A stretch of DNA of 64,000 nucleotides from Squalus acanthias (lineage: Eukaryota): NCBI GenBank assembly GCA_030390025.1, contig CM059431.1, positions 116,748,001 to 116,812,000 of the forward strand, written 5' to 3'. The number at the start of each line of letters is the position of its first letter. Positions within the stretch are counted from its first letter, which is position 1. Position numbers and translations under genes: made by a program. The notes under the pieces were generated by a model. That model did not search any database. It was given only the letters and a program-made list of their open reading frames with translations, and was not told where the DNA came from. Positions 4,136-63,446 of this stretch are shown here, in pieces.

Positions 4136-4230
4136 GAACTCGGCAGTGTGAGCGCTCCTAACCCAGCAGTGTTAGCAGTGAGCGCTCTGGAGCTGGATGT
4201 CAATGAACAGATTGAATTACACATTACAAA

Positions 4231-4289
4231 AGTGAGAAGTCACACAACACCAGGTTATAGTCCAACAGTTTTATTTGAAATCACAAGCA
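4231..4289 (-). mobile_element. 59-bp Penelope-like 3' fragment with 13-bp TSD
   Basis: Matches the 3' end of the elements at 24.9 kb and 54.3 kb; TSD TACACATTACAAA at 4218-4230 and 4290-4302. Confidence 0.88.
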
Positions 4290-4660
4290 TACACATTACA
4301 AAGATTTTGATTACTCAGATCTAATTACACATTCCAGACAAACTGCTGGGTGTGGCTTATCCTCCAAGGGGACCAATCAGAAATCTGGTCTTGTCCTCCA
4401 AGGGGACCAATCAGAACTTTGGTGTTACAAATAGTTACAGCCTGAAATTTTACTATGTAGTGACAAGTGTTGTCCTTTGCTGTAAAAAAGTGTCACCGTT
4501 AGAAAATCCTTGCTAAAATCATTTTTCTCAGTGACAGTAATTGGAGCAGTAAGTATGGTTTGTCAATTTAAGTCAAAATCTATTTGTTGTTATTTGTTAC
4601 TTAACCATTTAAATTAACAAATATATATTTCACTAATGGTTACCGTCTAAGTTAGACAAT

Positions 4661-24014: not shown

Positions 24015-24920
24015 ATTCAGTTTGTAAAAGTTCCCAAGCTGAAATCTGTGCATCAACAGGAATTGAAAGGTAGAAAGGTGTGTTCCGTCATCTCGCGAAC
24101 ATCTGTAAATTTCTCTTCTTTCCTTGTCAGTAGAATGAAAATGTAATTCTCAAAGATTTAAAATATTAATAATTTTTCTGATACGAAGTGCTCAATAAGG
24201 CAAGACCTCTGTATAGCACGCCTGTGATTAGCGCAGCTGTGATTTCTTTGTTTTCCTAATTGCCAACAATTTTATTTTAATCAAGAATAGAATTTTTTTT
24301 TGTCAATTAATTGGTTAAAATGTAATTAAAAATTTCTCTCCAGAAAATTCTTTTGGGCAGTCAAAGGATTTAAGCTGAAAAAGTGCTCTATTATGTTACT
24401 TTTGAGCATCCTGTGAGATCATTTTAATTTATTTTTGTCTCTGAAAAGGTAAAAGAAGCATTCAAACACAGCATTTTAATTGAATTTTAAATAACTTTAG
24501 GCGATAGGATTTATTCAGACATTGGTTTTTTAACAGACTATGATCACCATCCAACAATATAACAGGCACACTATTGTAAAAACTTATGCCTTAATCCATA
24601 AATACATTTAAATATGAAGTATCTACCGACTTCCCTACCTACCTATATATAATGTAGACCAGAAAAGGGACAGGAAAATAACAGTGGTCGCAGTGAGTAA
24701 GTGTCAGACAAGGAGGAGAAAGCTTCGGCTTTTTTTCATTTGTTCTTGGGATGTGGGTAACATGGACAAGGCAATATTCGTTGCCCACATTTAGTTTCTC
24801 TGAGGACATTTGAAGTCAACCATATACTGTGAGACTGGAGTCAAATGTAGAGCAGACCAGGTAGGGAAGGCACGTCAATCCCTGGTGGACCATAATGAAC
24901 CAATGGGTGTTTATGACAAT

Positions 24921-25147
24921 GATGCGGAGATGCCGGTGTTGGACTGGGGTGGACAAAATTGAGAGGTCGCACAACACCAGGTTATAGTCCAACAGTTTTA
25001 TTTGAAATCACAAGCTTTCGGAGCTTACTACTCCTTCGTCGGGTGAAGTGACTTCACCCGACGAAGGAGTAGTAAGCTCCGAAAGCTTGTGATTTCAAAT
25101 AAAACTGTTGGACTATAACCTGGTGTTGTGCGACCTCTCAATTTTGT
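24921..25147. mobile_element. Short palindromic Penelope-like insertion
   Basis: Perfect inverted repeat 24953-25049 / 25051-25147; 32-nt unpaired tail 24921-24952; TSD TGTTTATGACAAT at 24908-24920 and 25145-25157. Confidence 0.92.
25054..25092 (+). ncRNA. Minimal type-I hammerhead motif with core variant CCGACGA (mirror copy at 25008-25046 on -)
   Basis: tcac-CCGACGA-a-ggagt(agtaa)gctcc-GAAA-GCTT-gtga. Confidence 0.7.
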
Positions 25148-25973
25148 TTATGACAATCCAGGAGCTTTCATGATCATTCTCTGGTGCCAATCCACAAATT
25201 ACCAGATTTATAGAAGTCAATTTCACAACTTACTATGATACAATTAGAACTCTCTGTATCAAGTCCAGTAACATAACCACGAGGCCACTCCACCCTAAAA
25301 TTGTGTCAAGTTGGCTAATGGGAACCAGAAAGTATCAAATAGAGGCTATTACCTTAGGCCCAGAACGTGTGGTACAAAGAAGTGTGCCAACCCAAGATAC
25401 TGCCACCTTAATTTAAAGTTTGTCTTTAACCGATGAACTGTACTGCATGCAATATATTTACCTCATGCCGTACCTTAACCAACTGTGCAGTCAAATCTGT
25501 GCTATAATTCTATAAAAACACAAATTAAAAGAATAGAAACATCAAAGAAAAGAGAGAGGCAGGAGTGCATTACAATGGAATTTTAAAAAGATATACTTTC
25601 CTGTCTGCGTGCTCCTGTTGAGGACTGGCACCTGCAAGAAGTGCTGATCTGGAAATCAATGGTCCATAGCCATTGATTTTCTGCCCATTTACATGAATTA
25701 AAAGAAAGTCAGGGGCTACAGACCCTTGATTTCCCAACCAGCACTCCCAGCAAGCACTGTTCCTTGCCGAGTCTTCCCGATCAGGGAATAAGCTCTACCG
25801 TGTATTCTATTAATAAGTGAGCTAAAAGAGAGTCTGAACAGGGGAAGTAACTGACTGGAAAGAATGGGGTGTCCCAACAGCTTGAAATGAACGAGTTCAA
25901 GTAGCATAGCAAGTAATTAGCACATCAGGGCTAGGCGGCAGGCTTTTTTTCCCCCAAGGACGTTAAAAATAAT

Positions 25974-28049: not shown

Positions 28050-30060
28050 TAGGTCGTACACACTGTAGCCACGGTGAACCGGCGGTGGAAGGAGTGGATA
28101 TTTGAGTTAGCAGAGAGTTGGGATAAATGGTTCATTCTCAGACTGGCAATCAGTAACTAGTGGTGTTCCGCAGGGGTCAGTGCTGGGACCCCAACTCTTT
28201 ACAATCTATATTAACGATTTGGAGGAGGGGACCGAGTGTAACATATCAAAGTTTGCAGATGATACTAAGATGGGAGGGAAAGTAGTGAGTGAGGGGGACA
28301 TAAAAAATCTGCAAGGGGACATAGACAGGCTAAGTAAGTGGGCAGAGATTTGGCAGATGGAATACAATACTGGAAAGTGTGAGGTTATGCACTTTGGCAG
28401 GAAAAATAGTAGAGCAAGTTATTATCCTAATGGCAAGAAACTGGAAAGTACTGAAGTACTAAGGGATCTGGGGGTCCTGGTGCACAAAACTCAAAAGGTT
28501 AGTATGCAGGTGCAGCAAGTGATTAAGAAGGCCAATGGAATGTTGGCTTTCATTGCTAGGGGGATAGAATATAAAAAATAGGGAGGTATTGCTTCAGTTG
28601 TACAAGGTATTGGTGAGACCGCACCTGCAATACTGCATACAGTTTTGGTGTCCATACTTAAGAAAAGACATACTTGCTCTCGAGTCAGTACAAAGAAGGT
28701 TCACTCGGTTAATCCCGGGGATGAGGGGATGGACATATGAGGAGAGGTTGGGTAGATTGGGACTCTACTCATTGGAGTTCAGAAGAATGAGAGGCGATCT
28801 TATTGAAACATACAAGATTGTGAAGGGGTTGGATTGGGTGGATGTTCCCGATGATGGGTGAAACTAGAACTAGGGGGCATAGTCTTAGAATAAGGGGCTG
28901 CTCTTTCAAAACTGAGATGAGAAGGAACTACTTCACTCAGAGGGTGGTAGGTCCATGGAATATGCTGCCCCAAAAAGCTATAGAAGCTACATCATTACAT
29001 AAATTTAAACAGAAATAGACAGTTTCCTAGAAGTAAAGGGAATTAAGGGTTACGGGGAGCGGGCAGGAATTTGGACATGAGTCTAGGTTCGGATCGGTCA
29101 TGGCCCTGTGGGTAGCGTAGCAGGCCCAGGGGCCGTGTAGCCTGATCCTGCTCCTATTTCCTGTGTCCAATTCTGTTAGGTTCAGGAGATGGTTCTGTGA
29201 TAGTAGATTGGCGGTTAGGACCAGATCAGCCATGATCTTATTGAATGGCGGAGCAGGCTCGAGGGGCCAATTGGCCTACTCCTGCTCCTATTTCTTATGT
29301 TCTTATGTATGTTCTTATGGTCAGACTACCCATCAAGCGGGCTGCTTTGTCCTGGATGGTGTTGAGCTTCTTGAGTGTTGTTGCAGCTGCACCCATCCAG
29401 GCAAGTGGAAAGTATTCCACCACACTTCTGACTTGTGCCTTGTTGGTGATGGAGAGGCTTTAGAGAGTCACAAGGTGAGTCAGTTGCCATAGAATACACA
29501 GCCCCTGACCTGCTCTAGTAGCCACGGCATTTATGTAGTTGGTCCAGTTGAGTTTCTGGTCAATGGCAACTCCCAGGATGTTGATGGAGGATTCGGTGAC
29601 AGTGATGCCATTGAATGTCAAGGAGAGATGGTTGGTCAAACTGATGCTGGAGATGGTCATTGTTATGTGTGGTGTGATTGTTACTTGCCACTTATCAGCC
29701 CAAGCCTGGATGTTGTCCAGGTCTTGCTGCATGCAGGCATGAACTGCTTCATTATCTGAGGAATTGTGAATGGAACTGAACACTGCAATCATCAGCGAAA
29801 AGCCTCACTTCTGACCTTATGATGGAGGGAAACTCATTTATGAAGTAGCTGAAGATAGTTGGGCCTAGGACACTGCCCTGAGGAACTCCTGCAGCAGCGA
29901 TGTACTGAGGCTGAGATGATTGGACTCCAACAACCACAGCCAACTTCCTTTGTGCCAGGTATGACTCCAGACAGTGGAGAGATTGCACCCTGATCTCCAT
30001 TGACTTCAATTTTACTGGAGCTCCTTGGTGCCACACTCGGTCAAAAGCAGCCTTGATGTT
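28050..30060 (-). mobile_element. Poly(A) CR1/L2-group LINE fragment, split by a CR1 insertion
   Basis: ORFs 29752..30111 (IKAAFDRVWH, GVPQGSVLGP, LFADD) and 29460..29792; the continuation lies at ~28050-28110 on the far side of the CR1. Confidence 0.85.
28118..29320 (+). mobile_element. CR1 LINE, 5'-truncated, with double 3' module
   Basis: LGPQLFTIYINDL..KFADDTKMGG; (TTCTTATG)n tail. Confidence 0.95.
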
Positions 30061-37620: not shown

Positions 37621-39535
37621 ATGACTGCTTCAAGAGCAAAGGCCTCTCCAAGATTCGACGATGACTCCCTCCATGCACTTGTGGAGGGAGTGAGAGGGCA
37701 CAAAGAGATTCTGTTTCCCTCAAATGGAAGGAGGAAGCCTCCTCAGCAAACCAAGGCAGCCTGGCTGCAAATTGCTGAGGAGGTTAGCGCCAGGTCTTTG
37801 TGCTCACGCAACTGGGTTCAGTGCAGGAAAAGGTTCAATGATCTGCTATGCTCAGCAAAAGTGAGTATAACATCACACTTGCCTTCAATCTGCTCCCCAT
37901 CTCCTCTCATCACCAGCACTCTGCATTGTCAACCTACTCCTGCACATCCCAACTTACCCTTACATCCCTTGCACCCTTAACCATCCCTCTCTCTCTATGT
38001 ACAGAATCACTTCACCATTCTACTATGCGCCCCTCACACTCGCTATCACTGTTATGCAATGACAAAAACTAACAACGCACAGGGAGGGCCCTTGGTATTG
38101 GCACCTCACTCCATCTTTTTCTCCCTCTAAGAATCTATGCTATGGATTCTCTACACTCATTCCAGCATTGTCACTCAAACTCCACTTGTGTCCCTCATTG
38201 CAGGAAAAGAGAGCCCACAATAAGAGGGAGCGGGGGAGGACAGGAGGCGGGCCACCTCCCATGGCGCACTTGACCACCGCTGAGGAGGCTGCTCTCGACA
38301 TTGTCGGAGGTGCTGAGGAGCTGGAAGTGGGGGACGGAGAGACGGGTGTAGTAGAGCAAGCTGGTGACAGAATAGATTTGCAACCCTCTCATTTAGATTG
38401 CATGAATGACTGACATGGCATCTGATGCTCATACAGATTGAGTTATGATCATCTGCACAATTCCATGTGCATGCTTCGTTAATATCACATGTCTAACTCA
38501 TGCCTTTACTCCCCCACAGGACCATCGACAGCCCCCTCCCCACTGTCCAGGAGGAAGAGCCTGAAGACTCCTCAGAGGAAGCTGCAACCTCTGAGGGTGC
38601 AGTGTCAGCAGAATTGAGCGCACCCAGCACCAGCGCAGAGACGCGCACCTCGGCAGGTCATTCGCGAGATAGATTAGTGTTCTCACCTGGTGTATCACAG
38701 CTCACAAGTGAGCATCAGCAGATGGTGGAGACAGGGACAGCAGTGGAGAGTCCTTGTTGGAGGCCACAGGGCGCTCCCAGCTCTGCTCAGCTGCATGTGG
38801 ACCCTGTGCCTCTGGGGCCATCCAGAAAGAGAGCGGTGCTGGAACTTCAGGAACAAGTGCAGGAGTCTCTGATGGGGTTTGCAACCACTGTAACTGCGAG
38901 TGTGCAGAGAATGGAGGAGTCCATCTCAAACATGAGCAATGCCGTGGTGCACTCAATGGCGAATGTAGGTACTGCCATGGAAAGGATGGCAACCTCCATG
39001 GAGGACATAAATCGTTAGATGCAAATGAACATGGTGACTCTTCTAAATAGATGGTCTGCTATGGAGGATAGATGGGCATCTATTGAGGAGAGGAACCAGA
39101 GATACATGGACGTCCCTGTTATGAGGACTGTCAGTACAGAGACAGGTCCTCATGGCCCCACTGATGTGCAGCAAGGTGCTCTCCAGCTACTTGCTAGAAC
39201 TGAAGTGCAGCTGACCCATGAGAGGGATGATGGTGGTCGACAAACAAGGAAGTGTGGGCTCCTCGCCAAGCGCTCACATTCACATGCCACTGCAGAGCCC
39301 TCGGTCAGAGCCCTAGATTCCTCACCCAACTGAGATGGCCGTCTCAGCCCCTGCACAGCCACAGGAGGAGCAGACCGTTGCCGAGCCCTCCCAGGCTCCC
39401 AATCCCAGAGGACGCCCGCCAAAGGTGTTGAAGCAGGTGCAACATGAAAGTGAGCAAGGTGCCTCAACATCTGCTGAATCCCCAGGGGAAGAACCACGTA
39501 GAAGCACGCGTAAGAGAAAGTTAACACACAAATAG
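37621..39535 (+). pseudogene. Harbinger Myb/SANT-like DNA-binding protein gene, three exons, disrupted
   Basis: Exon 1 37621-37860 (PRFDDDSLHALVEGV..AWLQIAEEV..QCRKRFNDL, then GTGAGT); exon 2 38204-38363 (TGGGPP); exon 3 from 38520 with frameshifts and stops; basic C-terminus RRSTRKRKL. Confidence 0.85.
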
Positions 39536-39820
39536 TCACAAGGGTAGTCACTTGGGTGTTTTGATCGAATACAAAGTGAATATTCTCATCGTTATTTCAA
39601 TTATATTAAAGAAATTCAATGGCAAAGATTCAAGGAGTTGGCCTATGTGTGCCCAGAAATGGAAGTGTCACAGTAAGGGGTCAGGTGCCTTTCATCTGTA
39701 ATGATGGTGGTGAGAGTGATAGGAACCCATATTTTTTTGTGCAGATGCTGTATAGTGTGTTAAGAAGGTCGGCCAGACACTCATTTCCATGTGGCAGCCA
39801 CATGTGTTTGCTTCGTAAAC

Positions 39821-41006
39821 TTACGCGAATCTGGCATGGATTCGTGCAACCCTTGCCTCACGGCCAGCAATGTGCTCGCATGCTGGTGGAACTGGCACAT
39901 CCGCCTCCGCAAGGTCTGTCGTCCTCCTCCTCCTCCTCCTTTGAGGAGGCTGTGTACTGAACCACTTGTTCCTCAGGCAGCGGAAGCCACTCTGCTGTGC
40001 GATGTTGTGCAGTGCACAGCAGACCATGATGATTCTGGAGACCCTGGCTGGTGAATACTCTAGGGCTCCACTAGATCAGTTGAGGCCTCTGAATCGCATT
40101 TTGAGCAAGCCGATGGTTTGCTCTATGATGCTTCTGGTGGAAATGTGGCTCACATTGTAGCGCTCCTCATCGGTGTCATTAGCCACGTCTTCAGGGGATA
40201 GCCCTTGTCTCCAAGTAGCCATCCGGAAAGTTGTGTTGGCGGATTGAAGAGCGGAGGGACTGTAGACTGCTGCAGGATGATCAAGTTATGGCAACTGCCA
40301 GGGAACTTGGCGCAAACATGCATAATGTTCTTCTGTGGTTACACACCAGCTGGACGTTAAGGGAGTGGAAGCCTTTGCGGTTGACAAATACAGCTGGGTT
40401 GTGATGGGGTGCCCTAATGTCCACATGTGTGCTGTCTACGGCGCCCTGCACCCTTGGCAAGCCTGCCATATTTGTAAAGCCAACCGCACGCGCAGTTACA
40501 CTTGCTTCATCCGTGGAGAAGTGGATGTAATTGTGCGACTTTGCAAAGAGGGCATCAGTAACCTGCGTGATGCAAGTGTGTGCGGCCGACTGGGAGATGC
40601 CGCTGATGTCTGCTGATGATCCCTGGAAGGACCCTGAAGCAAAAAAGTTGAATGCGGTGGTGACTTTGACAACCACTGGTAAGGAGTGTCCACCTGCTCC
40701 TCTGGGCTCCAGGTGTTGGTGCAGCATTGTGCAGATGTCAGTGACTACCTCTCGCGTAAGTCTCAGCCTCCTTTGGCACTGCTGCTCACTCATGTTGAGG
40801 AAGCTCATCCTCTGCCTGTAAACCCGATGTTGGGGGTATCTCCTGTGGCGAGGTGCAGGCCCTCTGCCCTGTGCATCATCAGGTGGCTGAGGAGAAGGTT
40901 GGCGCTCCTGTTGTTGCTGCTGCTGCTGTGCCTGGTTCTGCTGCTGCCACGGCTGCTCTTCCTCCGATTCTGAGGGCCAGGATGAGAGGGTATAAATGGT
41001 TCCCAT
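39821..41006 (-). pseudogene. Harbinger (HARBI1-like) DDE transposase, frameshifted
   Basis: [30 protein letters not shown]; downstream frames give [22 protein letters not shown] and CCALHNIA. Confidence 0.92.
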
Positions 41007-41519
41007 TCTGCTGGTATATATCTCAGTTGAGGAATAAATGTTATAAGTGCTCAGTCAATGTGGGGAGAGGGTTTTCCAAGGAGGTCACAGTCATATGGAT
41101 CTCAGCTTAAACACTTACAAGCTCAATAGACCTGCAAAATGTGTTCCAAAACCTCAAAACACAAAGTTCTGGCATCTGAAAGTCAGCTATGTTGCAGGTC
41201 TGCTATTATGCTGCATGTGCAGCTGTCAAGAATTCAGCTAGTTGCTGAACCCGGCACAATCAGCTGTCGTGTTTGTCGCACAACATGGAACATGTTAAAA
41301 ATGTAGAATTATGTAGGCATTTAATAAGCTGTTAACGGCCTTAAGTGCCTCTCCCGCCGCTTGGTGTCGGGTCTGATCGGGACTCGCAGACTCTACACTT
41401 TGCAAAGTTGCGTGGAGGCGGGTTGGCGGCGGGTTCGCAACCTGCCATCAATCATTTAGATTTTCACTCCTGACCCGCCTCCAAACCCACCCTCTGAGCG
41501 CCGGCAAATTCGCAGCCAA

Positions 41520-41804: not shown

Positions 41805-42558
41805 GGGCTGGATTTTCCGATTGGAAGCTTCCTGCGTGCGGATGCCTCCAATCGGAAAAAATCTACGAACTTACCTGCTGGCTTCGTAGGTCCCGAGGCT
41901 TGTGATCCTGGGCCTCTGCTCTACGAAATGCGCAGAGGCCCAGGTATCCCAGGGGCGCATGTGGTTCGCAGGCACCCCTGGGATCACGTGGGCCATGGGG
42001 AACCAATCAAAGAAGGGAATCCCCCTTCATACTTTTGACAGGTCTCTACGCACAGATCTGTCAAAAGTATGAATGGGGATCACTTAAAAAAACAGTTAAA
42101 CATTAAATACATTTTTTTTTTAAATCATGTATTTAAAATTAGTTAAAATTACATTCAATTAAATATTTTAAACAAAAATGTAATTTTTTGAGAAGAATAG
42201 TTAAAGTTTTTTACAGGGCTAAAAATAAACTACCTTTTTTAAAGTATTTTAAAATTATAAATGAGTGAAATTAAAAAAAAAATTTTTTTAAACTCTTATG
42301 CTGGTAAAAAGCAGGCCTTATGCAGGCTTTTACCAGGCGTAAGATTTTTAAAGGTTTTCAGCGGGCGGAAGTTGTGCAGAAAGCGGAACTCTCCCCCCGC
42401 AGAGGCCCTTCTCCAGGGCAGGCGGATGATCTGTCAAGAGGATTCTTGACAGATCGCAAGTGCCGGGTTTCAACGAATGTGCTTCGCATGCCTGAAACCG
42501 GCACTTGCGAGGCCCCAACGGGTGCGTACACAACCATGGGGGTCGCAAAATCCGGCCC
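41805..42558. mobile_element. Harbinger-type MITE family A, complete
   Basis: TIRs GGGCTGGATTTT / AAAATCCGGCCC; TSD ACT/ATT. Confidence 0.9.
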
Positions 42559-46410: not shown

Positions 46411-49232
46411 GGGCTGGATTTTACGAACCTCGGAGGGTCTGTGGCGGGAGATGTCGGTGGCGGGTCCCAGCCTCGCTGCCGGCTCCATCCCGGCCTCTGA
46501 AATGAATTGACCGAGATTGGGCTTGTTAAGCCTGCCCAATTAGAGGAAGCGAGTCTGGTGATGTCACTCGATGACATGTCATCAGCCGGTTTCCTTAAAA
46601 GGGACCAGGGCCAACTTTCTTTTGATATTTGTGCTGTCAATGTTCTACAGCATTGAAGTGCTGCAAACACTGACAATCACTGCACAGAGGTGCAGGGCTG
46701 CACCCAGGCTCTCCCATGACTCCCTCCATATGTTTATGGAGGGAGTCACAGCACACAGGGAGGGCCTCTTCCCTTCCCATGGGCGGAAGAGACCTCCCTA
46801 AGAGATCAACACTGCCTGGTTGCACATTGCAGAGGAGGGCGCATGCAGGGATGTGGACCTGGGTAGAGGGCTGCAAACATTTCAATGATCTCAGTAGATC
46901 ATGAAACGTTAGTACAAAGCCATACTCAACCTCATCCTGCTGTGCCTCTCATCACATCCCCATCACTCTGCCTTCCCTACCCTACTCCTGCACATCCTTA
47001 CTCACACCAACTTGCCTTGCACCTCCACCCATCCCTCTCTATCTACATTATCACATCCCCATCTCACTAGCCACCCCTCACACTCACCCTCATCCTAGTG
47101 CAATCATACCAACTAACAACACACAAGGGTAGGCACTTGGGTGTTTATGCAATGTTCATGTAAAGTTTCTGGTAATGTGGTGTCAAACATTGAAACCTTT
47201 ATTTTCAACACTTTGCGTTCTTGGACAGATTTGTGTGCACCTTTGGAAGTGGCTTAGTGAGTTGCAGTGAATGGTGAGACATAACGGTACCCTCCGCAAT
47301 GGTCATGAGTGTGAAAGGAATGGCTTGGGCATTGTAGGGATGCTTTATGGTGTAGGTGTGGGGTGGTGCCAACCTGGCACATCATGTGGCAGCCAGGGTG
47401 TGCAGCGTCAAGTGAAGTCAATCTGGCCATGGTGAGCCATCCTGGCATCCTGGGCAGCAATGTGGTTGGGTGCTGATGCCCTGTGTCCTGTGCAGCATCA
47501 GGTGATTGCGGCGAAGGTTGGTGTTGTTGTTGGTACTGCTGGTGTGGCTGGTGTTGCTGGTGTGCCTGGTGATGCTGGTGTGCCTGGTGCTGCTGGTGTG
47601 CCTGGTGATGCTGGTGTTGGGGCTGATCATGGTGGGATTCTGAGGACCAAGGTGAGAGAGTTTCTTGGGCACCCATGCTGATGGAATAGATGGCAGGTGA
47701 AGTAGAGATGACAGAAGCGATCTGTTAATGGTGGGAGAGGTAACGAGGTCAGACTGGATGGAGACTTGTGTAAAGACTTGCACCATCCTGAATCTGTAGT
47801 GGAAATTCAGTTTCGAGAAGCTATTGGTTAAGGGAACATTTCTCAATCAGCTGGGAGCTTTGACTTGATATTTGAAGCTGTCAACTCATCAGCTGATTCA
47901 ATGGCCACTGACCTCCCACCTCAGTTTCACAGACGAGGTCTAGGCACAGCGGAAAACTGGTGGGAAACCTGTCAAATCCAAAATGCTTGGGAAAAAAACA
48001 TTGATATGCAAGGGGACATAGACAGGCTAAGTAAGTGGGCAGAGATTTGGCAGATGGAATACAACACTGGAAAGTGTGAGGTGATGCACTTTGGCAGGAA
48101 AAATCCTAGAGCAATTTATTATCTTAATGGCAAGAAACTGGAGAGTACTGAAGTGCAAAGGGATCTGGGGGTCCTGGTGCACGAAACTCAAAAGGTTAGT
48201 ATGCAGGTGCAGCAAGTGATTAAGAAGGCAAATGGAATGTTGGCTTTCATTGCTAGGGGGAATAGAATATAAAAATAGGGAGGTATTGCTTCAGTTGTAC
48301 AAGGTATTGGTGAGACCGCACCTGGAATACTGCATACAGTTTTGGTGTCCTTACTTAAGGAAAGACATCCTTGCTCTCGAGGCAGTGCAAAAAAGGTTCA
48401 CTCGGTTAATCCCGGGGATGAGGGGGTGGTCATATGAGGAGAGGTTGGGTAGATTGGGACTCTACTCATTGGAGTTCAGAAGAATGAGACACGATCTTAT
48501 TGAAACATATAAGATTGTGAAGGGGTTGGATCGGGTGGATGCGGGGAGGATGTTCCCGATGACGGGTGAGACTAGAACTAGGGGACATAGTCTTAGAATA
48601 AGGGGCTGCTCTTTCAAAACTGAGATGAGGAGGAACTACTTCACTCAGAGGGTGGTAGGTCCATGGAATATGCTGCCACAAAAAGCTGTAGAAGCTACAT
48701 CATTAAATAAATTTAAAACAGAAATAGACAGTTTCCTAGAAGTAAAGGGCATTAAGGGTTACGGGGAGCGGGCAGGAATTTGGACATGAGTCTAGGTTCG
48801 GATCGGTCATGGCCCTGTGGGTAGTGGAGCGGGCCCAGGGACCGTGTAGCCTGATTCTGCTCCTATTTCGTGTGTGCAATTCTGTTAGATGCAGGAGATG
48901 GTTCTGTGATAGATAGTAGATTGGCGGTTAGGATCAGATCAGCCATGATCTTATTGAATGGTGGAGCAGGCTCGAGGGGCCGATTGGCCTACTCCTGCTC
49001 CTATTTCTTATGTTCTTATGTTCTTATGTAGCTGTAAACAAGCCAGTATTGATTTTAATTGCCTCCCCCGCCGCGGCATGTCTGGTCTGCACAGCGCTGA
49101 CAGACCCGACATTTGGTAAAGGCGTGTGGCGGTGGGTTGACAGTGGGGTCTCGACATGCTGGGGAAAAAAAATACTTTCCTACCCGACCCGCCACCGATC
49201 GCGCCCGCTGACCCCCCCGCAAAATCCATCCC
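46411..49232. mobile_element. Harbinger internal-deletion derivative with nested CR1
   Basis: TIRs GGGCTGGATTTT / AAAATCCATCCC; AAT TSD at 46408-46410 and 49233-49235; inverted homolog of 10767-12540. Confidence 0.88.
47998..49029 (+). mobile_element. CR1 LINE, same subfamily as 28118-29320
   Basis: ORFs 47865..48272 (3' part) and 48232..48789; near-identical 3' UTR. Confidence 0.95.
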
Positions 49233-53204: not shown

Positions 53205-54063
53205 GGCCGCGATTTTGTCATTGGATGCGGGTTGGGTGCGGGTCAGGTGGTTTCTGGCTTCCAGATCCGGCCCACGGACGTGTTTTTATGTTGATTGACT
53301 TTGTTAAGCCCACCCTGTGGGCTTGCCGGCCAATTAAGAGGAATCCGGTCAGATGACGTAATTTGATGATGCGTCATTTGCCGGTTTTCTTAAAGGGACC
53401 ACACACAATTTTTTTTGACAGCTCATTTCTCAGTGTTTGCCAGCATTGAGGTGCTGCAAACACTGACAATCACTGTACAAAGGTGAGCTCTTGCACCCAG
53501 GCTCTCTAGTGACTCCCTCCATAGGCTGGAACAGATGGCAGCTGCAGCTGAGGTGACAGGAGTGATCTGTCACTTGTGAGAGAGGTTCTCCCAATGAGGT
53601 GGCACTAGCCATCGTTTTCAAAACTTGTTACCTAAAGAAATGTGTAAATGCATTAAAAATGATTTTCCCAACATTTTCTTACCTCTGAGACTCACCAGTG
53701 CACCATTGGATCCTTCACAGCATTTCTGCAGCTGTCTTCAATGCAGTAACATTACAGCAGACTCACAACATGCCACACTTACCTGGCGTAGTGTCCGGAC
53801 GTCGGGAAGCCCGAGGCAGAAGTGGCAAAATTAAAAAAGAGCCTGTTAACTACTCTCAACTACCTATTAACAGGCAGGTAAGTGGCTTTAATCCTCTTCC
53901 CGCCGCTAGGTGTCGGGTCCATGCGCAAATCGGGGAACCGACACTTGGGAAAATTGTTTGGAGGTGGGTTGATGGCGGGATCGTAACCCGCCGTCAATCA
54001 GAATGATTTTAACGTTTGACCCACCTCCAAACCCGTCCTCTCAGAGCCGATAAAATCGCGGCT
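53205..54063. mobile_element. Non-autonomous Harbinger family B
   Basis: TIRs GGCCGCGATTTT / AAAATCGCGGCT in A-rich flanks; homologous to 5308-7628 without the LTR. Confidence 0.88.
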
Positions 54064-54355
54064 AAAGATACTGCAAAGATACAGGAGCAAATACATGCAG
54101 GAAACTATTTTTAAATATTGATGGCACACAAATAGAGGGAAGACTGCCAAATGTTATTTAATATAAAGAAATTCACAATAAAAGTAAAAAGTTCTTTCTG
54201 ACTAAGGATTACAGAAAGAGCAAAACAGTTTTCCACAAAACCAATAGAGACTGACTATAATACAACATGATGTGGAGATGCCGGCGTTGGACTGGGGTGG
54301 ACAAAAATGAGAAGTCGCACAACACCAGGTTATAGTCCAACAGATTTATTTAATT

Positions 54356-54394
54356 TTACAAGCTTTCGAAGCAGTTCGCTCCTTCGTCAGGTAA
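54356..54394 (-). ncRNA. Minimal type-I hammerhead ribozyme (mirror copy)
   Basis: Exact reverse complement of 56492-56530. Confidence 0.8.
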
Positions 54395-54612
54395 GTTAGC
54401 AATGAGAGAATCTCCCAGAATTCACAATTTAAACCCAGGCAAAATCTATTCACATTATTCCCTACAACAAAGAGCATAGCCAAGACAATGAGATGTGTCC
54501 CAGGGGGTCCAACGTGTCAAACCACCTGCTGGCTGCATATCCTGTCAATTTGTGTTCTTGTGTTAGTCTCTTTAAAAAAAAAACACCTGGGAAGACCGGC
54601 CATGATGTCAAG

Positions 54613-55440
54613 TCACGTTCTGTATCGTGACATGAACCCGATATCGCGATTGAGGCCATCCTCATGAGTGCGGAACTTGGCTATCAGTTTCTGCTCTATG
54701 ATTTTGCGCTGTCGTGTATCTCGAAGGCCGCCTTGGAGAACGCTTACCCGCAGATCCGAGGCTGAATGCCCCTGGCTGCTGAAGTGTTCCCCGACTGGGA
54801 GGCAACCCTCCTGCCTGGCGATTGTTGCGCGGTGTCCGTTCATACGTTGTCTCAGTGTCTGCATGGTCTCGCCGATGTACCATGCTCTGGAGCATCCTTT
54901 ACTGCAACGTATCAGGTAGACAACGTTGGCCGAGTCACATGAGTATGTACCGTGTACCTGGTGGGTAGTGTCCTCACGTGTAATGATGGTATCTGTGTCC
55001 ATGATTTGGCATGTCTTGCAGAGGTTGCCGTGGCAGGGTTGTGTGGTGTCTTGGTTGCTGTTCTCCTGAAAGATGGGTAATCTGCTGCGAACGATGGTAC
55101 TTTTGAGGTTAGGCGGCTGCTTGAAGGCGAGTAGTGGAGGCGTGGGGATGGCCTTAGCAAGGTGTTCGTCGTCATCGATGACATGTTGAAGGCTGCGAAG
55201 AACATGGCGTAGTTTTTCCGCTCCGGGGAAGTACTGGACGACGTAGGGTACTCTGTTGGTTGTGTCCCGTGTTCGTCTTCTGAGGAGGTCTATGCGGTTT
55301 TTCGCTGTGGCCCGTCGGAACTGTCGATCGACGAGTCGAGCGTCATATCCCGTTCTTACGAGGGCGTCTTTCAGTGTCCGTAGGTGTCCATCGCGTTCCT
55401 CCTCGTCTGAGCAGATCCTGTGTATTCGCAGGGCTTGTCC
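54613..55440 (-). CDS. PLE RT thumb, Cys-rich linker and GIY-YIG endonuclease (5'-truncated, open)
   Basis: Mirror of the + arm ORF, identical translation from GQALRIHRICS onward. Confidence 0.85.
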   Translation of the reverse strand, partial: GQALRIHRICSDEEERDGHLRTLKDALVRTGYDARLVDRQFRRATAKNRIDLLRRRTRDTTNRVPYVVQYFPGAEKLRHVLRSLQHVIDDDEHLAKAIPTPPLLAFKQPPNLKSTIVRSRLPIFQENSNQDTTQPCHGNLCKTCQIMDTDTIITREDTTHQVHGTYSCDSANVVYLIRCSKGCSRAWYIGETMQTLRQRMNGHRATIARQEGCLPVGEHFSSQGHSASDLRVSVLQGGLRDTRQRKIIEQKLIAKFRTHEDGLNRDIGFMSRYRT

Positions 55441-55445
55441 CCTAT

Positions 55446-56273
55446 GGACAAGCCCTGCGAATACACAGGATCTGCTCAGACGAGGAGGAACGCGATGGAC
55501 ACCTACGGACACTGAAAGACGCCCTCGTAAGAACGGGATATGACGCTCGACTCGTCGATCGACAGTTCCGACGGGCCACAGCGAAAAACCGCATAGACCT
55601 CCTCAGAAGACGAACACGGGACACAACCAACAGAGTACCCTACGTCGTCCAGTACTTCCCCGGAGCGGAAAAACTACGCCATGTTCTTCGCAGCCTTCAA
55701 CATGTCATCGATGACGACGAACACCTTGCTAAGGCCATCCCCACGCCTCCACTACTCGCCTTCAAGCAGCCGCCTAACCTCAAAAGTACCATCGTTCGCA
55801 GCAGATTACCCATCTTTCAGGAGAACAGCAACCAAGACACCACACAACCCTGCCACGGCAACCTCTGCAAGACATGCCAAATCATGGACACAGATACCAT
55901 CATTACACGTGAGGACACTACCCACCAGGTACACGGTACATACTCATGTGACTCGGCCAACGTTGTCTACCTGATACGTTGCAGTAAAGGATGCTCCAGA
56001 GCATGGTACATCGGCGAGACCATGCAGACACTGAGACAACGTATGAACGGACACCGCGCAACAATCGCCAGGCAGGAGGGTTGCCTCCCAGTCGGGGAAC
56101 ACTTCAGCAGCCAGGGGCATTCAGCCTCGGATCTGCGGGTAAGCGTTCTCCAAGGCGGCCTTCGAGATACACGACAGCGCAAAATCATAGAGCAGAAACT
56201 GATAGCCAAGTTCCGCACTCATGAGGATGGCCTCAATCGCGATATCGGGTTCATGTCACGATACAGAACGTGA
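55446..56273 (+). CDS. PLE RT thumb, Cys-rich linker and GIY-YIG endonuclease (5'-truncated, open; possibly Neptune-type)
   Basis: GQALRIHRICS, PCHGNLCKTC, NVVYLIRC..WYIGET..LRQRMNGHR, VGEHF, E..LI..F....GLN; no native start codon. Confidence 0.88.
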   Translation, partial: GQALRIHRICSDEEERDGHLRTLKDALVRTGYDARLVDRQFRRATAKNRIDLLRRRTRDTTNRVPYVVQYFPGAEKLRHVLRSLQHVIDDDEHLAKAIPTPPLLAFKQPPNLKSTIVRSRLPIFQENSNQDTTQPCHGNLCKTCQIMDTDTIITREDTTHQVHGTYSCDSANVVYLIRCSKGCSRAWYIGETMQTLRQRMNGHRATIARQEGCLPVGEHFSSQGHSASDLRVSVLQGGLRDTRQRKIIEQKLIAKFRTHEDGLNRDIGFMSRYRT

Positions 56274-56491
56274 CTTGACATCATGGCCGGTCTTCCCAGG
56301 TGTTTTTTTTTTAAAGAGACTAACACAAGAACACAAATTGACAGGATATGCAGCCAGCAGGTGGTTTGACACGTTGGACCCCCTGGGACACATCTCATTG
56401 TCTTGGCTATGCTCTTTGTTGTAGGGAATAATGTGAATAGATTTTGCCTGGGTTTAAATTGTGAATTCTGGGAGATTCTCTCATTGCTAAC

Positions 56492-56530
56492 TTACCTGAC
56501 GAAGGAGCGAACTGCTTCGAAAGCTTGTAA
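56492..56530 (+). ncRNA. Minimal type-I hammerhead ribozyme in the PLE 3' region
   Basis: ttac-CTGACGA-a-ggagc(gaact)gcttc-GAAA-GCTT-gtaa; palindromic AAGCTT replaces stem III; predicted cut after 56526. Confidence 0.82.
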
Positions 56531-56671
56531 AATTAAATAAATCTGTTGGACTATAACCTGGTGTTGTGCGACTTCTCATTATAATACAACAGACTGAGTA
56601 TATAAATATAAAACACACTGGGAAAATAGCAACTATTGTATACTACCAAGTGTTATGTAACCAAGCATTAT

Positions 56672-57719
56672 GGGCAGGATTTTCCCTGTGGAGGCGGGAT
56701 GGCGGCGGGAGAGCTGGTTGGCGTTTTTCCAGTCCTGCTCCCGTCTGCAGCCCCTCTCTGAAAATGATTTTCCGTAGATTGGCCTTGTTAAGCCCGCCCT
56801 GCGGTGTTCCTGGCTAATTAACAGGAAGCGGGTCTGATGACTTCATTTGATGACGTGTCATCAGCCAGTTTCCTTAAAGGGACCACGGCCACATTCATTT
56901 TGACAGTTGTGCTGTCAGGACGATTTTGCCAGCCCTGGGGAGGTGGGTATGGAGGCGGGATTGCTGGGAAAATTGCAGAATTTGGGGGCGGGTGGCAAAC
57001 CTGCCCCCAACCCATCTCCATGCCATCTTCCCAGGAGGCAGGTTGCTGTCTCGCGCCGGGTCCCGTCTCCTTGGAGGTGGGAAGGGATTAAAACCTATCA
57101 ACTGCCTGTTAACAGGTAGTTAACAGGCAGAAAATAGGATTATCCCGTTTTTGCCCTCACAAGTGCGGGCTTCCCGATGGCTCCAAAACCCGCCAGCGAG
57201 GCGAGGCGAGTACTGGGTCTGTGGGGGTCGGGGTGGTGCAAAAGTGTGCTGTGAAGGTAAGTGAAGGGTGCAAGAGTGTAGAGGTGAGTATCTGAGGTAA
57301 GTCCTAAGTGTTTTTAAAAGTGTACATACCTTTGTTTCTTCCTGTAGGCTTCAGTCGGTTTCTATGCGGGGAGTCTCGCACCTCCGTGTTGCAGATGAGA
57401 GATGGCCGTTGCATTCTCAGATGCAACAAACATCCCAATTCTGTAAAAGAAAGAAGGTTGATGAGGTCTTGTATGCAAGACCTCATCAAACTGCAGAGAA
57501 TGTCACTTTTTGATAGCTTCACAGAGCTGTCAAACAATGACAATTCATCTGTCCAACGCGCCTCCACTCACAAAACCGCTCCCTCAGTGTTCTGCAGCAT
57601 TGAGGTACTGCAAACACTGACAAGCACTGCACAAAGGTCTGCACCCAGGCTCACACATGACTGCCTCCATATGCTTACGCCTCCAAACCCGCCCTCTGAG
57701 CACCGGCAAAGTTCAGCCC
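56672..57719. mobile_element. Non-autonomous Harbinger, internally rearranged
   Basis: TIRs GGGCAGGATTTT / AAAGTTCAGCCC; TAT TSD at 56669-56671 and 57720-57722. Confidence 0.82.
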
Positions 57720-62686: not shown

Positions 62687-63446
62687 GGGCTAGAAATTGG
62701 CCTCCTTAATGCCTCCCGTTATCATCTGCAGGGGGCGATAATGGGGTGCTAAGCACTTACCAACCGGGCGTGGCGAGAAGATCGCCTCCCGCTAAATTGG
62801 GCGGGAGGTTTGCGGTGGCGGTATGGCGTTGCGGCCCGATCTCCTTCGCCCAGAGATCGTGACGTCATCAGCGTGCCCATCGCCCAGGTAGCGCCCCAGA
62901 CCTGAACTTCAGTTCCGCCCCCTGCAGCATCGCCGGGCGAAAACACCGGCAGCTGCAGGAGGCATTCATCGGGAGGCCGGGTGCTTCGGAGGCGATACTT
63001 AAAGGCGAGGTGGCCGAGGTAAGTGGAAAAAATTCTGAAATGCTCGTTATCTTTTTTTTTCATTTCTCTTCGCCAGCGATCGATCAGCCCGGCACTCTGC
63101 TGCAGTGCATCGGGCTGATCAGGCCGGATCACGGCTGCCGTCGGGGGCCAGGTAAGTTTTTTCCTTGCCGAGCCTGCAGCGACGGCCCTTCCCTTTAAGG
63201 AAGGGAAGGAGTCTTCCAACGCAGCAGCGCTGCATGGCCCATTGTACAGCGCTGCTCACCTACCGCCCCGCCTGCTGCCTGCTACGCTCCAGGAAGGAAG
63301 TGGAACGCTTGATTTACTGCTCCACTTCCTTCCTGGAGCGCAAACACCGAATTTTTTAAAAGATGAAAAGCATTAGTGCCTGCCGCTAATTGTTTCAACT
63401 TTTAAAAGTTAGCCCCCCAAACGGGGCGATACCAAATTTCACCCCC
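62687..63446. mobile_element. GC-rich Harbinger-type MITE
   Basis: TIRs GGGCTAGAAATTGG / CCAAATTTCACCCCC; imperfect TSD GAT/AAT. Confidence 0.72.

Follow-up and report, generated by a model that had tools for sequence, protein, structure and literature searches.

How did a retroelement insertion in the shark Squalus acanthias come to be the perfect mirror image of itself? In a 64-kb stretch of DNA (the window), an earlier reading made from the sequence alone had noticed a palindrome of about 2.3 kb, described as two head-to-head Penelope-like copies around a 5-nt spacer, with a tail on the left arm only and one 12-bp target-site duplication (TSD) around the whole structure. We confirmed that the palindrome at 54256-56591 exists as a structure in the assembled sequence. 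For its origin we lean towards a one-event insertion, in which the first cDNA would have bent back on itself and served as primer and template for its inverted copy, leaving a perfect mirror of a truncated Penelope-like element (PLE).

Anatomy of the insertion

Self-comparison of the assembled sequence gave two arms of 1135 nt each, complementary at 1135/1135 positions with no mismatch, on both sides of the spacer CCTAT (Table 1). When the whole window was searched for perfect inverted repeats (arms of at least 15 nt, spacers of at most 30 nt), five were found, of which two are conspicuous: the 1135-nt arms described here and a pair of 97-nt arms at 24953-25147. The 12-mer bracketing the insertion is the sole direct repeat of at least 8 nt at both boundaries, has no further occurrence within the 64-kb window, and has a chance probability of about 3e-5, given the local composition and 25 offset pairs. 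The flanks of the insertion are 67-74% AT. The tail is confined to the left arm and measures 38-40 nt with 1-2 nt of microhomology, because family contigs fit from 54266/54267. The spacer, the tail and the exact arm identity were thus read correctly, and the single outer TSD together with a likely empty site in two other samples bears out a single integration event. The description as two head-to-head copies holds for the inverted orientation of the arms, but the structure is rather one truncated copy plus its own mirror.

Self-comparison revealed no direct repeat of the element end inside the insertion, as a partial tandem giving direct pLTRs would leave; such direct pLTRs are needed in the active unit and optional in truncated PLE copies (PMC2377424). 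A DNA transposon with long TIRs (MITE or Foldback) was rejected on account of the asymmetric ends with their one tail, the arm lengths of 1135 versus 97 nt, and the retroelement ORF content.

Table 1. Features of the palindromic insertion and of the other family copies in the window
Feature	Position	Strand	Remarks
Left TSD copy	54256-54267	none	12 bp, AT-rich
PLE tail	54268-54305	-	38 nt, or 38-40 counting microhomology; absent from right arm; outer end is a family-wide 3' boundary
Left arm	54306-55440	-	inverted mirror of the truncated element; probable copied arm
Minimal hammerhead, left copy	54353-54395	-	descriptor scan
Left ORF remnant	54613-55440	-	RT thumb, linker, GIY-YIG, stop
Fold point	55438-55448		3-bp stem 55438-55440 with 55446-55448, 5-nt loop 55441-55445; parental, continuous with right arm
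Right ORF remnant	55440-56273	+	277 aa; lacks a start and the RT catalytic core
Spacer CCTAT	55441-55445		5 nt between arms
Right arm	55446-56580	+	5'-truncated element to tail-less 3' boundary; probable primary cDNA
C-x4-C-x2-C linker motif, Neptune-type	55851-55877	+	translation; conserved in alignment
GIY-YIG endonuclease core, two internal cysteines	55962-56084	+	PF01541
Minimal (dimer-type) hammerhead, right copy	56491-56533	+	predicted cut 56526/56527
Right TSD copy	56580-56591	none	shares 1 nt with right arm
Second palindromic insertion, sister subfamily	24908-25157		about 29 kb away
Second palindrome, TSD	24908-24920 / 25145-25157		12-13 bp
Second palindrome, tail	24920-24952		left only, 33 nt
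Second palindrome, arms	24953-25049 / 25051-25147		perfect, 97 nt, 1-nt centre
Third copy	4218-4302	-	single tail-less stub of about 60 nt; 13-bp direct repeats 4218-4230 / 4290-4302; not palindromic

The element and its hammerheads

The same stop-free frame, the last 277 codons of the ORF, reads outwards from the centre on both arms. With the C-terminal 127 aa as query, GIY-YIG (PF01541) was found at 23.3 bits against a cut-off of 22.6, and the full 277-aa remnant had no Pfam match. The open GIY-YIG frame earlier attributed to each arm is therefore present, but both frames are 5'-truncated remnants, not genes. A search among longer proteins returned 16 matches, of which the best was a Heptranchias perlo protein with 91% identity, followed by those of other sharks. 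The remnant is 91% identical to P0001, which carries RVT_1, a domain present in 6/6 relatives. According to the alignment, the copy starts inside the RT thumb, so that 5' truncation has removed the catalytic core; it is therefore non-autonomous, unable to move itself. The motif VVY-LIRCSKGC-..-YIG places two cysteines between GIY and YIG; C31, C35, R49, H55, H71/H77 and N116 are invariant in alignment A2, and the E was found in the translation. Judged by these sequence features, the insertion is a 5'-truncated, non-autonomous EN+ PLE.

A CX2-5CxxC linker is present in Neptune and absent in Penelope/Poseidon (PMC8557442). By motifs alone the element appears to be Neptune-type, with Nematis as a formal possibility; the Penelope/Poseidon clade does not fit, since the C-x4-C-x2-C linker is present. 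An in-frame ATG at 55884 might begin a hypothetical 129-aa GIY-YIG-only product. Pattern scans of viral, metagenome and prokaryote collections gave 0 matches, a protein-led metagenome scan found three distant loci (29-31%) in plant metagenomes, and a PDB sequence search returned nothing under E 0.3. RNA folding of the tail region is not significant (z -1.0).

A descriptor scan of the whole window found four hammerhead sites, all within the two palindromes. The site at 56491-56533 combines a 4-bp stem I, a CUGACGA core, a bulged A, stem II and GAAA, with a palindromic AGCU in place of helix III. The hammerhead claimed for each arm therefore stands as a minimal motif by descriptor, but Rfam at gathering score had 0 matches in the window. 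We assign these putative hammerheads to the dimer type of PMC4209133: the minimal hammerheads of metazoan PLEs described there share with them the short helix I, the bulged base before helix II, the G10.1-C11.1 pair and the palindromic positions 15.2-16.2, without helix III. Unlike in that type, the two hammerheads here sit on opposite strands, and a dimer pair within one transcript is therefore impossible.

Family boundaries and an empty site in other samples

Contigs from four of 20 runs (X1, X2, X7 and X8) were compared with 53990-55445, which covers the left flank, the left arm and the spacer. The 16,190, 22,662, 2,219 and 2,147 matching records in the four runs indicate that the PLE family is very abundant, copy number not being derivable from them. 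Counts of loose ends come from the 24 of 959 rows that were listed and are lower bounds. At 54266/54267, loose ends with unlike flanks were found in at least 37 contigs of X2, at least 11 of X7 and at least 13+11 of X8; at 54308, the mirror of the right arm's tail-less end, in at least 37 contigs of X1. The family has two 3' boundaries about 40 nt apart, a tail end at 54266/67 and a tail-less end at 54308.

In X1 and X2, one contig each (349 and 343 letters long, at depths of 10.9 and 4.94) spans the unique left flank as far as 54267 and continues for 110 letters past it without matching the element. The expected reach across an empty site, with a repeat beginning at 56672 and 31-letter words leading to 56701, is exactly 110 letters. 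We infer from this length that both contigs likely cross an empty site, the allele for which the sequence-only reading had suggested a search. Both differ from the window at four letters in about 235-239 nt (~1.7%) and therefore represent another haplotype, population or close species, and the palindrome is not confirmed by them. The contigs of X7 and X8 do not cover the unique flank, an absence that proves little.

Age of the insertion

The CpG o/e ratio is 0.91 in the arm versus 0.44 in the window. At the mutation rate of the epaulette shark, 7e-10 per generation (PMC10587355), 0/1135 differences between the arms are compatible with an age of up to 1.9 million generations; if CpG rates are assumed to be raised 5-10-fold, the limit is 0.9-1.3 million. 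From the flank divergence (4 in 239), about 19 arm differences would be predicted; as none is seen, the insertion is younger than the flank split, unless the arms were converted. The evidence supports a young insertion. The stronger wording of the earlier reading, very recent, is overstated, because arm identity allows about 0.9-1.9 million generations; it would rest on palindrome instability, on which PMC13155455 makes a general statement.

The centre of the palindrome belongs to one arm

Across the centre, the right arm reads PYGQ and the left arm HRGQ. In the protein alignment the relatives read KEAIPYGQ or close to it, with IPYGQ in five of six and IVYSQ in P0010, and the left frame breaks from the family at this point. 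Family contigs depart from the left arm exactly behind 55440 (at least four in X1, at least 12 in X2 and at least one in X8), and the parental continuation there matches the bottom strand of the window through the 5-nt loop and three more bases, followed by divergence. In all its 11 nt, the centre continues the parental sequence of the right, tail-less arm, and the junction contains no untemplated bases. The 3-bp stem itself is weak evidence, because 11% of 1105 positions in the arm have a terminal stem of at least 3 bp by chance, and the stability of the centre hairpin is only -1.0 kcal/mol.

How the mirror could have been made

According to the one-event reading that we favour, the element's GIY-YIG would introduce nicks with a 12-nt stagger into the two strands of an AT-rich site. 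Primed by the right-hand nick, reverse transcription would begin at the inner start, which excludes the tail, and would stop after about 1.14 kb in the RT thumb. The 3' end of this cDNA would then snap back on the native 3-bp stem, and its self-extension would produce the identical inverted arm. The left-hand nick would finally prime a second cDNA at the outer start, by which the tail would be added; being complementary to the fold-back strand, this cDNA could anneal to it, and repair would close the insertion. The anatomy and the polarity of the centre (n = 1) are what we observe, and all four steps are our reconstruction from them.

Snap-back fits because the spacer and the 3-bp stem belong to the tail-less right arm as parental sequence. 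The two family boundaries also count for it, since they match the two RT start sites of PAc, the Poseidon element of Anolis carolinensis: this protein cuts either strand and extends it, favours AT-rich DNA, and initiates RT at two neighbouring sites, which mark the limits of the tail (PMC11167929). Head-to-head palindromic junctions of PLEs have been interpreted as self-priming on an antisense template (PMC3846280). A G at 54439 is found in both arms and at depth in 0/4 runs; sharing a letter so rare in the family is as the copying of one cDNA predicts, and alternatively it could be a variant of the source element. Element BLAST found three loci within the window, two of them palindromic in this tiny sample, and the same build at 24908-25157 counts for the one-event fold-back model. 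The idea that the third copy, the stub at 4218-4302, ends at the hammerhead cut was rejected, as it extends 4 nt beyond the predicted site.

Other observations stand against snap-back. Two cDNAs annealing by 3 bp would yield the same junction, and the 1-nt centre of the second palindrome is too short for a loop, unless its parent was quasi-palindromic. None of the 10 joints listed for the four runs changes strand, so no fold-back junction appeared in these contigs, although hairpin unitigs may be dropped or be among the 935 unlisted loose-end rows.

In L1 twin priming, both nicks act as primers, and L1 5' inversions invert a non-overlapping part. Twin priming with run-off is the alternative that survives best, albeit as an unlikely one: both nicks would prime long cDNAs, one from the outer and one from the inner start, on the same or an identical 5'-broken RNA; both would halt at almost the same place, to be joined by 3-bp microhomology. 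The resulting centre would be identical to the snap-back outcome, and a 1-nt centre is easily produced in this way; PAc, a predicted dimer, extends both strands (PMC11167929). However, after 1.14 kb of synthesis the ends of the two cDNAs would have to lie no more than 8 nt apart. Furthermore, the inverted copy of a full-length PLE spans only the pLTR, yet forms a palindromic junction with the main copy (PMC3846280), a junction that we infer to be automatic under fold-back.

It is improbable that the host made the mirror, either by repair of a break end that had folded back or by later arm-to-arm gene conversion that equalised older arms. Inverted duplications with small hairpins and 2-bp homology are found at L1-induced break ends (10.1101/2024.12.14.628481), but the mirrored DNA here is element and not flank, ends at exact family boundaries and leaves the TSD intact. 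Homogenisation could account for the second palindrome, in which the hammerhead core is changed from CUGA to CCGA in both arms, and for four sites that read TpG/CpA in both arms of the large palindrome and CpG in other copies. Those four alleles are nevertheless common in the family, the CpG form making up 30-99% of depth and mostly about half, and therefore look like subfamily variants; the idea that CpGs decayed in both arms after insertion and so prove gene conversion is accordingly not supported. The high CpG o/e of the arm also argues against decay.

A still smaller chance falls to an assembly artefact, in which a fold-back chimera was assembled or polishing equalised two slightly different arms. 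No centre-spanning read or contig was found among the contigs of the four runs, and in none of these runs was the flank haplotype of the window present. Animal assemblies very rarely contain perfect inverted repeats at the kb scale: in a survey of 118,019 genomes, only 25 of them metazoan, the longest perfect arm in human measures 140 bp (PMC13155455), and the 1135-bp arm is about eight times as long. On the other hand, the mirror symmetry does not extend into the flanks, each arm terminates at a different boundary typical of the family, the unit lies between the TSD copies, the two flanks are likely contiguous in the empty allele, and the short second palindrome has the same build. A chimera would not produce these features, and we rejected fold-back sequencing chimeras as a class on the distinct flanks, the 12-bp TSD and the family-typical ends; polishing may still have removed a few mismatches.

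The least probable reading, to which we give hardly any weight, is a working hairpin-RNA locus that yields endo-siRNA, serves as an ADAR substrate or silences the family, as had been proposed together with a hammerhead in the double-stranded RNA. Plus-strand read-through would fold with 1135/1135 arm pairs (-2461 kcal/mol, computed), and small RNAs of PLEs have been reported in rotifer and fly (PMC3846280). In PLEs, however, the pLTR houses the promoter, and transcription proceeds downstream from it (PMC2377424); here such promoters would be expected to face outwards. All 43/43 hammerhead nucleotides pair with the other arm (duplex -78.4 versus -9.5 kcal/mol alone), and a dimer-type hammerhead requires a same-sense partner (PMC4209133). 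Two other samples appear to lack the insertion, which is thus not conserved, and X8, a run that may be RNA, has no contig cover on the unique flank 54088-54234, where absence proves little. By eye, no host exon was recognised in the 16 window frames of at least 150 aa, short exons being possible. A silencing role is possible but unsupported and very improbable. We regard the insertion as one without likely function, fresh and probably unstable.

Beyond this locus, an abundant Neptune-type PLE of sharks may routinely turn its truncated insertions into perfect palindromes, with arms up to kb, via snap-back and a tail-adding second priming, a generalisation that we put forward tentatively and doubt somewhat more than we believe. 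If it were true, the antisense template proposed for PLE junctions would be the cDNA itself and the one-sided tail would be explained; perfect inverted repeats of a length well beyond any human one would be numerous in shark genomes, forming a natural series in which to study how PLEs work and how stable palindromes are. Were such insertions common in sharks, the mechanism could be tested by spacer polarity across the genome, and the decay of the arms would gauge how unstable palindromes are in a vertebrate that mutates slowly.

Comparison with known systems

Inverted pseudo-LTRs with a short tail, named as a known PLE layout by the sequence-only reading, are indeed published (PMC3846280, PMC8557442, PMC8969392). 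Abundant head-to-head palindromic junctions, inverted pLTRs with one tail and a TSD around the unit are described in PMC3846280, where Pen2a_Av and Pen2_Av of Adineta vaga share with our insertion an inverted 5'-truncated copy at the 5' end and a palindromic head-to-head junction. The same EN+ PLE scheme is given in the legend of Fig. 2 of PMC8557442, for form C of D. virilis Penelope (PMC2377424) and in PMC8969392. Common to the inverted EN+ insertions in these sources and the one described here are a 30-40 bp tail at one end, a C-terminal GIY-YIG, a hammerhead in the 3' region and one TSD around the unit, of 8-10 bp there versus 12-13 bp here. In those insertions, what is inverted is for the most part a pLTR of about 200 bp (of variable extent in D. 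virilis), next to a main copy of greater length, whereas here, in a shark, the truncated main copy is mirrored in full, with perfect 1135-bp arms 5 nt apart.

With the Neptune clade (PMC8557442), the element shares the C-terminal GIY-YIG with two internal cysteines, the R, H, E and N residues and the C-x4-C-x2-C linker; it differs in that the RT core is missing from this copy, and the assignment is by motif only. PAc likewise has two 3' boundaries flanking the tail, AT-rich targets and an upstream hammerhead (PMC11167929); by the linker motif it belongs to a different PLE clade, and the tail here has no significant fold. The accessible text of PMC11167929 describes neither whole-insert palindromes nor cDNA fold-back for PAc. 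Fold-back inverted duplications at L1-induced break ends share self-annealing hairpins of 2-3 bp, but copy genomic DNA (10.1101/2024.12.14.628481), whereas here the element is duplicated on itself. In the open-access literature covered, neither whole-insert PLE palindromes in sharks nor snap-back of PLE cDNA was found.

As a single locus, the palindrome is a dead insertion of known layout, whose value is that of a clean record: its centre reveals the parental arm at base level and thereby bears on how PLEs make inverted copies and one-sided tails. What is distinctive is a matter of degree, as the entire insert is mirrored in unusually long and clean arms.

Other copies and repeats in the window

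Besides the main palindrome of the 5'-truncated Penelope-like element (PLE), two further PLE insertions and three short inverted repeats were recorded. The hammerhead core of the second palindrome has CCGA in place of CUGA in both arms, and this hammerhead adjoins the fold point, which lies immediately upstream of it. The single stub has about 5 nt of microhomology at its 3' junction and ends 4 nt beyond the predicted hammerhead cut. Two element remnants (28307-29319 and 48004-49028), which we take to be CR1/L2-like LINEs, are 93% alike, and the frames at 38497-41054 (~38.5-41 kb) are presumably similar to a Harbinger-type nuclease and its partner.

PLE insertions and short inverted repeats in the window
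Feature	Positions	Arms	Centre	TSD	Tail	Context
Second perfect PLE palindrome	24908-25157	97 nt	1 nt	12-13 bp	left only	
Single PLE stub	4218-4302			13 bp	none	
Short inverted repeat, perfect or near-perfect	42019-42080	27 nt				within another repeat
Short inverted repeat, perfect or near-perfect	57091-57141	23 nt				within another repeat
Short inverted repeat, perfect or near-perfect	63285-63340	20 nt				within another repeat

The main palindrome and its family

At position 54439, both arms of the main palindrome carry G; in contigs of the four sequencing runs compared, A accounts for all of the depth. Near 54351 and 54521, too, the window copy, a member of a minor subfamily, departs from the form most common in the family. 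The frame at 55884-56273 (+), like its mirror, opens with an in-frame ATG where relatives have Ile; this ATG lies shortly ahead of the GIY-YIG core, and a putative 129-aa endonuclease-only product could start there.

In contigs from X1 and X2, runs of other samples, the tail end (54264-54273) is joined to internal element positions 54521, 54919, 54926 and 55056 with short inserts between; these joins point to PLE copies elsewhere that were inserted in tandem or nested within one another. Pieces of the PLE ORF also lie inside annotated shark gene isoforms of septin 5a, XRCC5, PPP1R12A-like, FSTL5, USP8 and NOXP20-like (protein matches P0007-P0009, P0011, P0015 and P0016), reflecting either exonisation or annotation artefacts.
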